Assembly (NCBI GenBank): GCA_029263095.1 | Contig: JAJCYA010000002.1 | Coordinates: forward strand, 32,511-96,510 | DNA from: Acidimicrobiia bacterium | Lineage (GTDB): Bacteria > Actinomycetota > Acidimicrobiia > Spongiisociales > UBA11373 | DNA length: 64,000 nucleotides | Direction of reading: 5' to 3' | Shown here: positions 56,424 through 62,534 of the stretch, piece by piece | Numbering within the stretch: position 1 is the stretch's first letter | Layout: each line of letters begins with the position of its first letter | Program-made: the position numbers and the translations under genes | Notes under the pieces: generated by a model | Database searches by the model: none | Told to the model about the DNA's origin: nothing | The model's input: only the letters and a program-made list of their open reading frames with translations

Positions 56424-57286
56424 CGTTCTACGTCCCGATGTCTCGCTGTCACGTCAAGGTCCTCGAGTCCGACAAGGTACGAGGCGACGTGCTCTGCGAT
56501 GGCAACGGAACGGTGCCTCCCACCGGTGCAACCGATCCCGATCGTGAGGTACGACTTGCCCTCGCGTTGGTAGCGAGGCACCAGGAAGGCCAGCAGATCC
56601 TCCAGTCGCTCCAGGAACGCTCTTGTGTCCTCCTGCTCGAGAACGTGCCGGCGCACCGGCTCGTCGAGACCGGTGAGTGGCCGCAGCTTCTCGACCCAAT
56701 GGGGATTGGGGAGGAACCGAACGTCGAACACGAGATCGACCACTCTGGGAACCCCATTCTTGAAGCCGAACGACGTCACCGATACGCGCAACGGTCGCTG
56801 CTCCACCTCGCCTGCGAAGCTGGCCGTTATCAATTCGCGCAGTTCGTGCACGTTGAGTTCCGACGTGTCGACCATCTGATCGGCGCTGCGGTGGAGCCCC
56901 GACAGGGCCTCGCGCTCCTCGGCGATGGAATCTGCCACAGTCTCTGCCGGAACCGGATGCGGGCGACGCGTCTCGGCGAACCGGTTGACGAGGACGTCGT
57001 CATCGGCATCCAGGAACAGCGTGGTCGTGGGCACCCCATCGGCAGCGAGCCGTCGCATCACCAGGTCGAGATCGTCGAAGTCGAGGCCGCCGCGCGTGTC
57101 CACGACGACGGCCAGACGGGTATGCGCCCCTTCGGGGAGATCGGCACCTCCCACGACCTCCGAGATCAGTTCGGCAGGGAGATTGTCGATCACGAAGTAT
57201 CCGAGATCCTCCAGGGCCTTCGCCGCCTGTGATCTTCCGGCTCCGGCCATGCCCGTGATGATGACGAGATGGGGTCGCTCAACCAC
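56420..57286 (-). CDS. rapZ: RNase adapter protein RapZ (YvcJ), a P-loop NTPase
   Basis: VIITGMAGAGRSQAAKALEDLGYFVIDNLP. Confidence 0.85.
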   Translation of the reverse strand: MVERPHLVIITGMAGAGRSQAAKALEDLGYFVIDNLPAELISEVVGGADLPEGAHTRLAVVVDTRGGLDFDDLDLVMRRLAADGVPTTTLFLDADDDVLVNRFAETRRPHPVPAETVADSIAEEREALSGLHRSADQMVDTSELNVHELRELITASFAGEVEQRPLRVSVTSFGFKNGVPRVVDLVFDVRFLPNPHWVEKLRPLTGLDEPVRRHVLEQEDTRAFLERLEDLLAFLVPRYQREGKSYLTIGIGCTGGRHRSVAIAEHVASYLVGLEDLDVTARHRDVER

Positions 57287-57758
57287 CGTCGGCCTCCATA
57301 TCCAGCAATGCCTGCTTCATTGCCAGGCCACCTGCGTACCCACGGAGCGATCCGTCGGAACCGACGACCCGGTGACACGGGATCATCGGGGCGAAGCGAT
57401 TCTTGGCCATGGCTGCGCCGACCGCACGGGCCGCACCTGGTCGTCCGACGCGAGATGCGACCTGCGAATAGGTCATTGTCGTCCCGGCGGGAATCGCCGT
57501 CACGACTTGGTACACGGCTGTGTCGAATGCGGTGGCCGACGCCGGGACAATACACCCTTCTCCGGAAGGCCAACCCCCAGACCCATCGAAGTACCCGGCG
57601 AGTGCACCGGCCAACCGTTCGACTTCCGCCGGCGGCGCCGTCACGGTCCCATCCGGCTTCGGGAGGCCGGGAAGCACCAGCCGGTCGATCGCACCGGTAT
57701 CGTCCCACCCGATCCATCCCCTGCCGTGGCGAGTCTCATACGACGCCCACGACATCCC
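57279..57758 (-). CDS. ogt: Methylated-DNA-protein-cysteine methyltransferase (Ogt/MGMT)
   Basis: Active site IPCHRVVGSDGSLRGYAGG. The start is uncertain (ORF to 57800) and it overlaps the uvrC 3' end. Confidence 0.75.
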   Translation of the reverse strand, partial: GMSWASYETRHGRGWIGWDDTGAIDRLVLPGLPKPDGTVTAPPAEVERLAGALAGYFDGSGGWPSGEGCIVPASATAFDTAVYQVVTAIPAGTTMTYSQVASRVGRPGAARAVGAAMAKNRFAPMIPCHRVVGSDGSLRGYAGGLAMKQALLDMEADGG

Positions 57759-59583
57759 CTCCCCCGTGGAGGACGCCGTAGAGACGTTTTGCGACCTCAT
57801 CAGGGAGAACCTCCTTCAATTCATCGGCCTCTGCCTCTCGAATCCGCTTGAGCGACCCAAAACGCCTCAGAAGAGCTTTCTTGCGAGTCGGACCGATCCC
57901 GGACACATCATCCAGTACCGAGTCAACCATACGGCGTCCTCGCAGCTTCCTGTGGTAGGCGTTGGCAAACCGATGCGCCTCGTCGCGTATCTGTTGGAGG
58001 AGGTACAGCGCCTCCTCGCCACGGGGTATCCGGACCGGCTCGGCTCGACCCGGGAGGTACACCTCTTCCATACGCTTGGCCAGGCCGGCCACCGGAATAT
58101 CGAGGTCGAGCTCATCGACCACCTTCATCGCCCGTGAAACCTGCCCCGCTCCCCCGTCGACCAGCAGCAAGGAGGGCGGATACGCAAACTTGCCTCGCTC
58201 AGCGACCGGCTGCTCACGTTCGATCAGGTAGGCCGTGAATCGGCGGTGCAGCACCTCCTCCATGGAGGCAAAGTCATCCTGGCCTTCTACGTCACGCACC
58301 TTGAATCGCCGGTAGTGGCTACGCCGAGGGAGTCCGTCTTCCATGACCACCATCGACCCCACGGTGTCTCGCCCCTGAATCGTTGCGATGTCGAACGCCT
58401 CTATCCGCAGCGGTGGCTCGGGAAGACCGAGCACCTCTTGGATGGATCGCAGCGCCTTGGCGCGCGCGTTGTGATCACTCTGTCGTCGCAGGCGGTGACG
58501 AGCGAACGCCTCCTTGGCGTTGGCGGCGGCCGTTTCCATCAGCCGACGCTTGACTCCGCGCTGGGGAACCCGAAGGGAGACACCTGCCTGACGCCGGTAT
58601 TCGAGCCAATCGGACCACAGTTCCAAATCTGAGGGAAGCCTTTGGACGAGCACCTGGGGTGGCGGCCGCTCCGATCCATAGGCCTGGCTGAGCATCCGTT
58701 CAGTGAGCTCGGCGGTTGTCACGTCCTCGACTTTGTCCACGATCGTGCTGAGACGTCCGCTGACTCTGCCGTTGCGAACGTTGAGAACCACCAGCGAGGC
58801 CTCCAGATCGTCCTCCTCGATCGCAAACAAGTCGAAGTCCTCCTTACGCGTGGAGGCGACCTCTTGCTTGGCCAGCGCCTTTTCGATCGCAGCGAGCCGA
58901 TCACGGTGCCGAGCCGCCAACTCGAACTCGAGAGCTTCGGAGGCGGCTTCCATCTCGGAGCGGATCGCCTCCCCTATCGATTCACTGTTGCCTGATAGGA
59001 ACGCCGCCAGTCCATCGACGTACTGCTGATAGACCTCGGGCGTCACTTCGCCGACGCACGGGCCGGAGCAACGTTCGATGTGGAAGAGCAGGCAAGGGCG
59101 ACCCGATGCTTCGTGTCGCCGGTACTTGCCATTCGAACAGGTCCGCACCGGGAAGGTTCGAAGCAGAAGATCGAGCGTCTGACGAATTGCGTAGGCATGG
59201 GCGTACGGCCCGAAGTACTCGGTGCCGGAACGGCGACGCCCCCGCATCACGGTCGCTCGCGGCCACTCTTCAGAGCGGGTTATGGCGAGGAAGGGATATG
59301 ACTTGTCATCCCGCAGCCGAATGTTGAACCGGGGCCGGTGCTTCTGAATGAGGCTGTACTCGAGCATGAGCGCCTCGACCTCCGTGTCGGTGACGATCCA
59401 ATCGACCGAATCGGCAGCCGCGACCATTGCTCGTGTTCGAATGGCCAGGTCGCGCGAGAAGTAGGAGCCGACCCGTTTTCGAAGCGACTTTGCCTTTCCG
59501 ACGTAGAGGATCGCCCCGTGCACATCACGGAACTGATAGGCCCCAGGACCGTCGGGAATCTCCGCAGAAGGTGGGCGCTGCAC
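57736..59583 (-). CDS. uvrC: Excinuclease ABC subunit C
   Basis: N-terminal GIY-YIG (GAYQFRDVHGAILYVGKAKSLRKRVGSYF), a UvrBC domain and a C-terminal (HhH)2. Confidence 0.92.
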   Translation of the reverse strand: MQRPPSAEIPDGPGAYQFRDVHGAILYVGKAKSLRKRVGSYFSRDLAIRTRAMVAAADSVDWIVTDTEVEALMLEYSLIQKHRPRFNIRLRDDKSYPFLAITRSEEWPRATVMRGRRRSGTEYFGPYAHAYAIRQTLDLLLRTFPVRTCSNGKYRRHEASGRPCLLFHIERCSGPCVGEVTPEVYQQYVDGLAAFLSGNSESIGEAIRSEMEAASEALEFELAARHRDRLAAIEKALAKQEVASTRKEDFDLFAIEEDDLEASLVVLNVRNGRVSGRLSTIVDKVEDVTTAELTERMLSQAYGSERPPPQVLVQRLPSDLELWSDWLEYRRQAGVSLRVPQRGVKRRLMETAAANAKEAFARHRLRRQSDHNARAKALRSIQEVLGLPEPPLRIEAFDIATIQGRDTVGSMVVMEDGLPRRSHYRRFKVRDVEGQDDFASMEEVLHRRFTAYLIEREQPVAERGKFAYPPSLLLVDGGAGQVSRAMKVVDELDLDIPVAGLAKRMEEVYLPGRAEPVRIPRGEEALYLLQQIRDEAHRFANAYHRKLRGRRMVDSVLDDVSGIGPTRKKALLRRFGSLKRIREAEADELKEVLPDEVAKRLYGVLHGGGDVVGVV

Positions 59584-59661
59584 GATCCCCAGAGACTAGG
59601 TATTGGGCGCTGGGTATTGGGACGACCGGTCGCCGTCTACCCCACGCCCAACGCCCAACGC

Positions 59662-61800
59662 CTACATGTAGTACTCGGGTATGCAGTAGATGGCCAGCAT
59701 GTAGCCCATCCACGGCAACAGCCCCATCGGTATCAGAGCGGTCGACTTCCGGAGCCACATGCTCTGGCTGTAGCCGTGGTTGATCCCCCACCAACCGAAG
59801 AACGGCAGGAAGAAGAACGGGAACCACCCGCCCCAGAACGGAGTCAGGTTGATCGCCCACCAGAACCAGAAACCGACGTAGGCGACGAATAGACCCCACA
59901 TCCACGGCTGGAACCACGGCTGCCTACGGGGTCGGTACCACAAGTAGAAGGCGACCGGACCCAGCCAGAAGACCGGCAGCAGCAGGCCCCAGGTCGGTGA
60001 ACCGACCAAGAACATGAGCAGAGCCGCGACTCCTAGGTAGCCGCCGACCACGTACCAGTGCCATTGCAGCCACCAACTTCGGTGCCGTGCCCAGTAGTAG
60101 GCGTAGCCGGGGATGACGCCGAACCAACCGAGGAGCGGTAGCCACCACCAATTCGGCTGGAAGAACCACAGTCCCAGCAGCAGGAAGGGGATACCCACCC
60201 AGATCACCATGAACCAGGGAACCCAGCAGGACCACCATTCCTCTTCCTTGAAGTGATTGAAGATGGCGCAGAAGATCGTGAGTGCCAAGAACCCGATGAT
60301 CACGAAGCACCACCAGGGGCCCCACAGCGGGATCCACCATGCCAGGAACGGCAGGAATGTGAAGGGAACCACCCAGCACCACTTGGGACCGTGGATCACC
60401 CTCCAGCTATACCCGTGGCTGACGAACCACCAACCCAGGACGCCGAACCCCACCACCGGCAACCACCAGGCCCACCAGACCGTGAGGCTGATCACCCAGA
60501 TGAAGTTCCAGATCAGGTAGGCACCGGCGAAGCCCCACATCCACGGTTGCCACCACGGTTGACGGCTGCCCCGGAACCACAGGTAGAACCCCACCCACGG
60601 AACCCAGAACAGGGGGAACAGCAGGCCCCACTCGGGAGCACCTACCACGACCATCCCGACTCCCAGGGCCGCCAGGTATCCACCGACGACGTAGAGGTAC
60701 CACGGCTGCCACCAGGAACGTTTCTGCGCCCAGAACCATGTGTAGCCGCCGATGATCGGGAACCACGCAAGCAGCGGGACCCACCACCACGTCGGCCGCC
60801 ACCACCACATTCCTGCGAGCAGGAACGGTACCCAGGCAAAGATCACGATGAACCAAGGAATCCAGCAGGTCCACCAGTCGTAGGTCTTGAGCCAGATGTA
60901 AAGGATGGCGAGCAGCACCACCAGGAAGAGCGCGACAACGCCCCAGCACCACCAGCAGGTCTCGCTGGTGCGCTCTCGCGTGGTCGTAGAGGTGGTGGTT
61001 GTCGTTGCCGGCTCGGTGGTCTCGGTGGTCGTTGCGGCCTGCGTGGTCTCGGTCACGACGGCGGCCTGCGTGGTCTCTGTCACGACGGCGGCCTGAGTGG
61101 TCTCGGTCACGACGGCAGCCTGAGTGGTCTCGGTCACGACAGCGGCCTGCGTCGTCTCGGTCACGACGGGAGTGGCCTCTACCGGCACCCCACGCGATGT
61201 GTCGTAGACCGGCATCTCTCCGTGATACCCAAAACAGTCACCTTGAGGCTCAATGGTGATGCCGGTGAAGATGCTGGTCGTCGACTCGAAGCCGGCATCC
61301 TCGGTCCGCATGTGACCTGATGTCAGCTCGAGGTCTACAGCCGTATGACCGTTGATTGGGACACCCGAATCGACCAGTAGGGACCCGTTGGACATGATGC
61401 GCCACTCGCCGCCGACCTCGGGTCCCGCGGCGAAGGGGGCAGAATTCTGAGCGTACCCCTCCGACACGCCGTCATGGCGTTGGGTGCCGAACAAGTGGTC
61501 GAGCGTAAACACCTGTACGAACCAGGAGAAGTAGTCGGGCGGGACTCCCCCCGCCCAAGGAGCGGTCGGAAGGAGGTAGAGACATAGCGTTCCCGTTGGC
61601 GACGACATGGCCATGGCACTCTCGAACACGAAGCGTGGGTCGAGGCCAGCTTCCCCTACTGTCTGAGCAGCAAACAGTGCGGGTTGGGCACTCGGAACCG
61701 GGCCCGGATCGGCGGCGCTTGCCACTACCGCTCCACTCCCCAACACCGTAGACATAACGGTTGCGGTCAAGAACAACCGCAAACTGCGCGAACGTCGCAC
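59662..61800 (-). CDS. Extremely tryptophan-rich polytopic membrane protein with an N-terminal secreted domain, a TETTQAAVV x5 linker and an internally duplicated W-rich multi-TM domain (712 aa)
   Basis: Signal peptide MRRSRSLRLFLTATVMSTVLGSGAVVASA; tandem 9-aa repeats; then two ~190-aa repeats beginning CWIPWF.../CWVPWF..., each built from TM hairpins preceded by basic-WWQPW-type motifs (RPTWWW, KRSWWQPW, RQPWWQPW, QPNWWW, HRSWWLQW, RRQPWFQPW). Confidence 0.6.
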   Translation of the reverse strand: MRRSRSLRLFLTATVMSTVLGSGAVVASAADPGPVPSAQPALFAAQTVGEAGLDPRFVFESAMAMSSPTGTLCLYLLPTAPWAGGVPPDYFSWFVQVFTLDHLFGTQRHDGVSEGYAQNSAPFAAGPEVGGEWRIMSNGSLLVDSGVPINGHTAVDLELTSGHMRTEDAGFESTTSIFTGITIEPQGDCFGYHGEMPVYDTSRGVPVEATPVVTETTQAAVVTETTQAAVVTETTQAAVVTETTQAAVVTETTQAATTTETTEPATTTTTSTTTRERTSETCWWCWGVVALFLVVLLAILYIWLKTYDWWTCWIPWFIVIFAWVPFLLAGMWWWRPTWWWVPLLAWFPIIGGYTWFWAQKRSWWQPWYLYVVGGYLAALGVGMVVVGAPEWGLLFPLFWVPWVGFYLWFRGSRQPWWQPWMWGFAGAYLIWNFIWVISLTVWWAWWLPVVGFGVLGWWFVSHGYSWRVIHGPKWCWVVPFTFLPFLAWWIPLWGPWWCFVIIGFLALTIFCAIFNHFKEEEWWSCWVPWFMVIWVGIPFLLLGLWFFQPNWWWLPLLGWFGVIPGYAYYWARHRSWWLQWHWYVVGGYLGVAALLMFLVGSPTWGLLLPVFWLGPVAFYLWYRPRRQPWFQPWMWGLFVAYVGFWFWWAINLTPFWGGWFPFFFLPFFGWWGINHGYSQSMWLRKSTALIPMGLLPWMGYMLAIYCIPEYYM
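61017..61169. repeat. 27-bp tandem repeat (~5.7 copies) encoding the TETTQAAVV linker of the W-rich protein
   Basis: GGTCTCGGTCACGACGGCGGCCTGCGT units with 1-3 substitutions each. Confidence 0.85.
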
Positions 61801-61862
61801 TCCAGCCCTCCCTCAGAGACGAGTGCGAGTCTAGGTGCGGGGACAGTCGGCGTGCCGGGCGA

Positions 61863-62534
61863 TCAACGCCTCCACTTGGCCCCGATCAGTCGAGGAATCT
61901 GCGTTTGTGCTGCCAGCAGAGGATCTCCCGCGGGGTCGAGCGCGCGCTCGACGAGGCGTTCGAGTCGCCAACCTGCGTCGGCCGCGGCGGTCAGAAGATC
62001 ACCAAACGACCGGTGGTGAAAGACGACGGAGCTCGTTCCAGCCGGTTCGTTGGAGAATCCTCGGTCGAAGTACTCGCCCCACCGCCACAACACCTCACCG
62101 TCGCCGGGGTCTACGAACGGTCCCGACCCTGGAGCCGAGAAGACCGGATGGTTGGCCACCACGGCGAGTGTCCCGCCCGGGGCGACGACTCGGGCCGCCT
62201 CGGCAAAGAAGGGTTCCGGATCGGCAATGTGCTCCAGCACAAGCACGGCAAACGCGGCGGTCATGGCATCGGCCGCCAACGGAAGGTGTCCGACGTCCGC
62301 CACTACAGCCGGTCCTCGCACGGCCGCTACTCGCACAAGGTCGCGAGACACATCTACGCCGACTGCGCCGTACTGTTGCAGAAGCCGACCATCGCCACAC
62401 CCGAGATCAAGAGTCAAACCGCCGACGACACCGTCGAGCAGCTCGGCAAGGAGCGGATCGACATCGCGACGGTACGCCGGATCGCCTTCGACCTCTCCCT
62501 GCCACCAAGCGGCGGTCGGGCCGTCCCAGGTCAC
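61863..62534 (-). CDS. Class I SAM-dependent methyltransferase (223 aa)
   Basis: [11 protein letters not shown] (motif I) ...[10 protein letters not shown]. The substrate is unknown. Confidence 0.7.

Follow-up and report, generated by a model that had tools for sequence, protein, structure and literature searches.

The region at positions 59,662 to 61,800 of the stretch of DNA analyzed here (64,000 nucleotides of an Acidimicrobiia bacterium, hereafter the window) raises the question of what a protein could be that spends tryptophan, the rarest and costliest amino acid, on one-sixth of a 430-residue membrane domain. To answer it, one has to decide whether the open reading frame is a gene, whether its product belongs to any described family, and what function its architecture and distribution suggest. 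The features on which the analysis draws are the following:

59662..61800, minus strand: whole gene, 712 codons and a TAG stop (open reading frame list, dN/dS, homologues).
61806..61814, minus strand: Shine-Dalgarno-like sequence GAGGGAGGG, 5 nt upstream of the GTG (read from the sequence).
61714..61800, minus strand: predicted signal peptide, aa 1-29 (MRRSRSLRLFLTATVMSTVLGSGAVVASA then A; sequence reading, with aa 3-21 a lone helix in the AF2 model).
61156..61713, minus strand: membrane-proximal ectodomain, aa 30-215 (about 185 aa), a family-specific all-beta sandwich.
60961..61155, minus strand: Thr-rich disordered stalk, aa 216-280, 45% Thr (composition; pLDDT < 50).
61034..61169, minus strand: 27-bp tandem repeat, 5.0 copies, encoding (AAVV)TETTQ (TRF).
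60946..60957, minus strand: CWWC motif (C282, C285) at the outer end of helix 1 (conservation).
60310..60960, minus strand: Trp-rich module 1, aa 281-497, helices 1-8 (AF2 helices, module alignment, hmmsearch domain 281-497).
59665..60309, minus strand: Trp-rich module 2, aa 498-712, helices 9-16 (self-alignment, module alignment, AF2, hmmsearch).

The region is a genuine protein-coding gene under purifying selection. The minus-strand frame opens with GTG and specifies a product of 712 aa; in the part that encodes the membrane domain, GC content at the three codon positions is 0.49, 0.50 and 0.87. Against nine orthologous loci, dN/dS is 0.16-0.38, with dS near saturation, and differences at position 3 are about twice as frequent as those at position 1 or 2. 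The preliminary description of this DNA, made from the sequence alone, put Trp at roughly 15% of the C-terminal ~450 aa; the extreme enrichment is real and the estimate itself slightly low, given that aa 276-712 contain 75 Trp residues (17.2%; 16.6% for aa 260-712, and 78 residues or 11.0% for the whole protein). The other 50 predicted proteins of the window have a pooled Trp content of 1.7% and a maximum of 4.4%, and under a binomial model the chance of 75 or more Trp among 437 aa is about 1e-50 for the pooled rate and about 1e-23 for the maximum rate. Conceivably, a frame of such composition could be a shadow cast by another gene, antisense or out of frame, or else a pseudogene, and the opposite strand does carry a 355-aa open reading frame at 60253-61320. 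However, the latter translates into low-complexity sequence rich in Pro, His, Glu and Gln, as the complement of TGG-rich DNA, whereas the minus-strand frame combines its GC3 of 0.87 with a ribosome-binding site, a strong third-position substitution bias and a product conserved in more than 30 independent assemblies. The antisense frame, which the preliminary description had named as a possible refutation of its reading, is ruled against by GC3, by the dominance of third-position changes and by the dN/dS range; homologue searches together with the substitution pattern refute the shadow and pseudogene readings, whose probability is close to nil.

The N-terminal part has the appearance of a secreted domain on a disordered stalk. 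The predicted signal peptide consists of a basic MRRSRSL region, a hydrophobic core and an ASA|A site, all read from the sequence rather than called by a dedicated predictor. The ectodomain that follows shares with its homologues the motifs FSxYVQ, GFQTHDGVSE, DGALLF and PVYDLxTGE; modelled alone, it forms a beta-sandwich (pLDDT 87.6, pTM 0.83), and the AF2 model of the full protein, built on a 27-sequence alignment (mean pLDDT 75.6), places an all-beta domain at aa 46-200. These features fit the signal peptide and ~200-aa secreted domain originally proposed. A Foldseek search of the PDB gave nothing at E <= 1e-3 and, for the ectodomain, only weak, Ig V-like matches; the modelled fold is a generic sandwich that gives no hint of a ligand. 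The stalk is Thr-rich, and a Thr/Pro-rich linker occupies the same position in every homologue. Its 27-bp repeat (91% matches, score 230 in Tandem Repeats Finder) corresponds to the five near-perfect TETTQAAVV repeats noticed at the outset; the copies differ from one another by 1-3 synonymous bases, and the repeat, which is absent from the closest homologue (P0001), is specific to this genome.

In the AF2 model of the full protein, from which the boundaries of the transmembrane helices were taken, aa 211-279 are disordered and sixteen helices, mostly at pLDDT 80-90, lie between aa 283 and 711. This part of the protein is internally duplicated: aa ~283-465 and ~497-680 align without gaps at 49% identity (E 4e-51). 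The duplication claimed in the preliminary description is thus upheld, with a unit of about 215 aa (281-497 and 498-712) in place of the ~190 aa given there. Each module is composed of a first helix, three helical hairpins and an eighth helix; the hairpins open on the inner face with a basic residue followed by WWxPW and turn on the outer face at P(E/T)W or WWW. All four motifs singled out earlier (KRSWWQPW, RQPWWQPW, HRSWWLQW and RRQPWFQPW) precede helical hairpins, on the side that holds 12 of the 13 Lys and Arg residues of the loops. Hairpins B and C are related to each other at the profile level (hhalign probability 97%, E 1e-11), and a marginal relation links hairpins A and B (E 3e-4).

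With respect to topology, the signal peptide, the helix count and the charge distribution (12 loop Lys and Arg on the inner side and one on the outer side when the N-terminal domain is set outside) predict an N-terminus outside the membrane, 16 helices and a C-terminus that is likewise outside. Since each module has eight helices, the two modules would be parallel and the chain would end on the outside, and since the cytoplasmic loops are only 1-10 residues long, the protein has no room for a cytoplasmic domain. Homologues bear on this prediction in two ways. Those with a single module and a ninth helix have short basic C-terminal tails, as would be expected for a cytoplasmic C-terminus, and three distant two-module members carry, after module 2, an additional soluble Cys-containing domain of ~130 aa, whose cysteines would fit a C-terminus located outside.

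The distribution of the aromatic residues agrees with the belts that had been surmised: on both membrane faces, the short loops and the outermost fifth at either end of each modelled helix together account for 57 of the 75 Trp. The remaining 18 sit deeper in the helices, where, by our reading of their i, i+3/4 spacing, they form aromatic stripes. No charged or strongly polar residue is conserved at any of the 196 helix-core positions, and the only conserved non-aliphatic residues among them are Tyr353 and Tyr375 (both invariant), Tyr406, Tyr428, Cys511 and Cys706. What is conserved is a skeleton of Trp and Pro, with a few Tyr and Cys and, in the loops, Arg and Lys. Among the cysteines, C282 never varies across 27 sequences and C285 is conserved in at least 90% of them, and the CWWC motif that they form recurs in the distant members P0027-P0034; Cys706, near the C-terminus and on the predicted outer face, is conserved in 22 of 22 sequences. 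Further conserved cysteines are C498, on the outer face along with C706, C312 and C475 on the inner face, and C511 in the middle of the membrane.

None of the libraries searched contains a described relative, as the preliminary description had suspected. Pfam gave no credible match for the full protein, eight homologues, 24 modules or 27 ectodomains; NCBIfam, PHROGs and PADLOC gave none, and PDB sequences gave none by profile or phmmer. A description of such a Trp-rich family was not found in the literature. Matches to Stevor, Rifin, HemX and CadC, far below the cut-offs and limited to the Thr-rich linker and the first helix, were discarded as low-complexity. The opinion that the protein is no obvious TspO match also stands, there being no match to TspO_MBR at E <= 1 with the full protein or with any of the 24 modules. 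The 16-helix Trp-rich domain likewise resembles no solved structure in the PDB. Within the libraries searched, these results support a new protein family and a new membrane architecture.

A word-indexed search of 5.8 billion proteins retrieved 26 relatives at 38-71% identity, all of them unnamed or annotated as 'hypothetical' and none with a Pfam domain; those that carry a name come from Actinobacteria or Acidimicrobiia MAGs. A HMMER search with the module profile, run exhaustively over 1.84 billion cluster representatives, gave no more than 27 proteins at E <= 1e-3, 13 of them at E <= 1e-30; two of the weakest matches, P0047 and P0049, are unrelated repetitive proteins and were rejected as members. 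The phylogenetic distribution of the W-rich repeat, a check suggested at the start, proved narrow: with one genome taken per species across 185,579 species, there are 13 loci, all in MAGs, of which 12 are labelled Acidimicrobiia, Actinomycetota, Ilumatobacteraceae, Microthrixaceae or Acidimicrobiaceae and one is binned as Kiloniellaceae. With this gene as its founder, the family is a small orphan one, restricted to uncultured Acidimicrobiia/Actinomycetota.

Common to its members are an ectodomain folded as a beta-sandwich, a stalk rich in Thr, and the 8-helix Trp-rich module in one copy or two. The family is defined by a CxxC-led 8-helix module with basic-WWxPW hairpins and at least 14% Trp, a definition to which the query conforms (317 and 292 bits for its two modules on the module profile). 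Without exception, the 27 aligned proteins have a module region that is 13.8-21.2% Trp. Among these close members (35-74% identity), every one of which also has the membrane-proximal beta-sandwich and the Thr/Pro-rich linker, the majority of the 75 Trp do not vary, and the same holds across a set of about 35 homologues. When distant modules are included, the consensus of 61 modules still has 48 Trp in 217 columns, and the columns conserved in at least 90% of the modules comprise 18 Trp and 7 Pro, with no Phe, Val, Ala, Gly or Ile column; Trp and Pro are thus the best-conserved residue types. The ectodomains are more varied, with extra N-terminal domains of 200-400 aa in many members and N-terminal regions that span 170-625 aa. 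Both one-module and two-module forms occur. The identity between the two modules of a protein is 83% in P0027, as against 39-59% in other members, and in P0027 both modules resemble module 1, which indicates that the two-module form arose, or was homogenized, more than once; on the strength of such recurrent duplication or homogenization, it can be argued that the modules work in pairs.

In the window, the Trp-rich gene lies in a series of minus-strand genes in the order uvrA, a SAM methyltransferase that overlaps the uvrA stop by 4 bp, the Trp-rich gene, uvrC, an Ogt-like open reading frame, rapZ, yvcK, pgk and tpi. The same placement, between the uvrA-methyltransferase pair and uvrC, recurs in at least ten other lineages. 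To assess this linkage, metagenome contigs were scanned with an alignment of the methyltransferase, which yielded 62 informative loci: ten carry the Trp-rich gene, and the other 52 have uvrA, the methyltransferase and uvrC without it, with 33-740 bp between the last two genes. The closest relatives of the methyltransferase (71-72% identity) come from loci that lack the Trp-rich gene, and the next closest (68-70%) from loci that have it. At one of the gene-lacking loci, L023, the 237-bp spacer still encodes the last ~40 codons (...LPWMGYMLAIYCIPEYYL*), a deletion remnant of the gene. Moreover, seven family members reside in unrelated neighbourhoods that have no partner in common, for example in a luciferase-like/APH context, in an MsrB/molybdo-oxidoreductase context with a different methyltransferase, between thrA and lysA, and in a lineage where a gene of the beta-lactamase family overlaps the stop by 4 bp. 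The gene is accessory: at a single fixed site on the chromosome, some close relatives carry it and others lack it. We accordingly rejected the idea that it is functionally tied to the methyltransferase or the uvr genes: the patchy presence and the unrelated neighbourhoods point to an autonomous accessory gene at a recurrent site, independent of the methyltransferase and with no part in excision repair.

The reading that we favor, tentatively and with confidence that falls somewhat short of even, is that the product is a display or anchoring protein of the cell envelope, built on a new kind of platform with a double aromatic belt and probably consisting of paired modules. The secreted beta-sandwich, together with the extra N-terminal domains of many homologues, would be the interacting part, with a partner outside the membrane that could be the wall, particles, other cells or phage. 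The stalk, probably O-glycosylated, would hold the ectodomain away from the membrane, and its length could change through the 27-bp repeat. The membrane domain would be neither a transporter nor an enzyme, functioning instead as a rigid platform whose Trp belts are locked into both lipid-water interfaces. The modules would act as a parallel pair, fused in one chain in this protein and formed by a homodimer in single-module homologues, and the outer-face cysteines (CWWC, C498 and C706) may staple them together through disulfides. Surface exposure, glycosylation, dimerization and disulfides are thus features that we infer for the Trp-rich protein. Among the functions suggested in the preliminary description, all of them hypotheses (an interfacial anchor, a lipid or arene scaffold, an envelope structural protein), the anchor or envelope role fits best. 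The main weakness of the anchoring hypothesis is that most surface proteins make do with a lipid anchor or one helix; anchoring alone leaves the invariance of so many Trp unexplained, and 16 helices with dozens of invariant Trp imply a more specific role.

Several alternatives would assign such a role to the aromatic residues or the cysteines. The Trp-rich domain might bind menaquinone or some other hydrophobic ligand of the aromatic or isoprenoid type, with a redox-active CWWC, in the manner of a DsbB/VKOR-like thiol oxidoreductase coupled to the quinone pool. This is an unlikely reading that nevertheless draws on the position of the CxxC exactly at the outer membrane boundary, on its conservation throughout the family, distant members included, and on the presence of other conserved Cys on the outer face, the inner face and in mid-membrane; quinones, moreover, are commonly bound by aromatic-rich pockets. 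The protein, however, has no homology to DsbB or VKOR, no match to the four-helix bundle and no second pair of loop cysteines, and its outer loops are too short for the shuttle mechanism. Alternatively, the Trp/Tyr lattice might itself be the working part of a new membrane fold, a distinctly improbable proposition that draws on residue conservation. As a conduit for electrons or holes, it would connect, without a cofactor, the outer cysteines (CWWC, C498, C706) with the inner ones (C312, C475) via Tyr353, Tyr375 and Cys511; as a UVR8-like sensor, it would absorb UV-B intrinsically.

A channel or transporter, for instance one with a pore lined by cation-pi interactions and gated or fed by the ectodomain, appears very improbable. 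In its favor, two parallel 8-helix repeats, 16 helices in all, resemble the general layout of many secondary transporters; against it, a search of the 196 helix-core positions for a conserved polar pathway found none, as did the search for a family match. The protein was also compared with GT-C glycosyltransferases of the Emb/Aft/PMT-like kind; neither the outer loops nor the helix cores hold an Asp or Glu that is conserved, and nothing matches a GT-C family or structure. The neighbourhood in the window and in the other lineages invites yet another explanation, in which the gene would serve UV protection or nucleotide excision repair, with the Trp cluster acting either as a UV-B chromophore comparable to that of UVR8 or as a sink that takes up damage from UV or oxidation. 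The GWRHT motifs of UVR8 place basic residues near Trp, and here basic residues adjoin the WW motifs. Nevertheless, we regard this explanation as highly improbable given the 52 of 62 uvrA-methyltransferase-uvrC loci that do without the gene (one of them with the deletion remnant), the seven members that are found elsewhere and the want of a cytoplasmic output domain; furthermore, several of the source MAGs are named groundwater or RBG_16 (a label that we read as aquifer sediment), and the fold is helical and embedded in the membrane rather than a beta-propeller. The probability that is left after the envelope anchor and the listed rivals goes to a function not yet imagined.

Should the anchor model be right, the family would represent a new membrane-protein architecture and an extreme natural experiment on the way in which interfacial aromatic belts hold proteins in the bilayer, relevant for the design of membrane proteins and for the little-known Acidimicrobiia envelope. 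The patchy presence, the variable ectodomains and the stalk of repeat-dependent length make a role in cell-surface interactions likely, with phage, predators or particles, in abundant uncultured environmental actinobacteria. The practical weight of the finding is limited by the narrow taxonomic range and by the accessory status of the gene.

Comparison with known systems reveals partial likenesses in each case. What the protein shares with DsbB and VKOR, likewise helical membrane proteins, is a CxxC at the outer membrane boundary. With UVR8 it shares many conserved Trp beside Arg or Lys, and here also a UV-repair neighbourhood, a likeness of position only; UVR8, however, is a soluble beta-propeller, whereas the Trp-rich part is a membrane domain, all-helical and without a Pfam match to RCC1. 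TspO/MBR (PF03073) is likewise a helical membrane protein with raised Trp, and the present protein is not the five-helix bundle of ~160 aa that characterizes it. The actinobacterial surface and secreted glycoproteins with Thr/Pro-rich linkers resemble it in its predicted signal peptide, its folded and putatively extracellular domain and its low-complexity Thr-rich linker of variable length; these glycoproteins are either released by secretion or attached through a lipid, one helix or sortase, and none is known to use a 16-helix Trp-rich anchor. Finally, ordinary aromatic belts, WALP peptides and gramicidin position Trp at both lipid-water interfaces, as is the case here, and the snorkelling and anchoring of interfacial Trp is an established physical principle. 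In contrast to ordinary belts, the density of Trp in this protein is about ten times higher, nearly every loop contains WW or WWW runs, aromatic stripes appear to extend down several helices, and Trp is the most conserved residue of the family.

In the window, the Trp-rich gene is accompanied by the following features.

57279-57800, minus strand: Ogt/MGMT-like ORF, 173 aa, with a PCHRV motif read by eye
59640-59662, minus strand: 3.3 copies of the heptamer CGTTGGG, beginning at the final nucleotide of the Trp-rich gene's TAG stop codon
60253-61320, plus strand: Pro/His/Glu/Gln-rich ORF, 355 aa, opposite the Trp-rich gene
61863-62534, minus strand: SAM methyltransferase (Methyltransf_11), with a 4-bp overlap with the uvrA stop

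The methyltransferase is conserved between uvrA and uvrC across 62 related metagenomic loci, and related loci have uvrB upstream of uvrA. Among the NCBIfam models, the top match of the window methyltransferase is a weak one, to the DVU_1556 family (48 bits, with a cut-off of 155). The 173-aa ORF, which shares 65 nt with the 3′ end of uvrC, looks like an Ogt/MGMT-type protein, judging by its motif. A DNA_binding_1 gene occupies the equivalent position both in the related locus L005 and in the contig encoding the family member P0025. The uvrA/uvrC locus would thus also include this repair-type gene. A terminator-like hairpin was looked for in the interval between the Trp-rich gene and uvrC in the window, and none was found. 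The TGG-rich coding strand gives rise, through its complement, to the plus-strand ORF, which could be mis-called by a gene caller.

The Trp-rich gene itself can be lost from this locus. The closest relative of the window methyltransferase (72% identity) is encoded in locus L023, where the spacer between the methyltransferase and uvrC is 237 bp long (L023:953-1188) and retains, in frame, the 3′ end of the Trp-rich gene, that is, approximately 40 final residues ending in HGCSQDLWLRKATAVVPMAMLPWMGYMLAIYCIPEYYL and the stop codon. This coding remnant is the product of a deletion, which indicates recent gene loss in L023.

The family also varies in its modules and domains. In the Acidimicrobiaceae-type clade of P0027 (L020:6435-8597), modules 1 and 2 are 83% identical, compared to 39-59% in all other members, and each is similar to module 1; together, these sequence features point to an independent duplication or gene conversion of the modules in this clade. 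A distant subfamily (P0028, P0031 and P0033) lacks the usual beta-sandwich ectodomain and contains an additional soluble, Cys-containing domain of about 130 aa, C-terminal to module 2, for which a Pfam match is absent. A profile search with the ectodomain alignment (A3) against a collection of 5.8 billion proteins gave 0 matches, with 26 known family members missed as well, apparently at the word-index step.

With respect to the hosts, one family member is found in a contig with 62% GC that is binned as Kiloniellaceae (Alphaproteobacteria; L013, CAXMOL010000067.1), likely a case of mis-binning; all other genome hits are actinobacterial. In one lineage, in which the Trp-rich gene lies outside the uvr locus, its stop overlaps by 4 bp a gene of approximately 430 aa (L007:8067-9359, L018:1396-2670 and L021:689-1981), which suggests co-translation of the two genes. 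The L007 product, the copy that was scanned, hits PF00144, the beta-lactamase/DD-peptidase family, at E 2e-67, and the L018 and L021 products share its N-terminal sequence. This overlapping gene is a weak hint at an envelope role.
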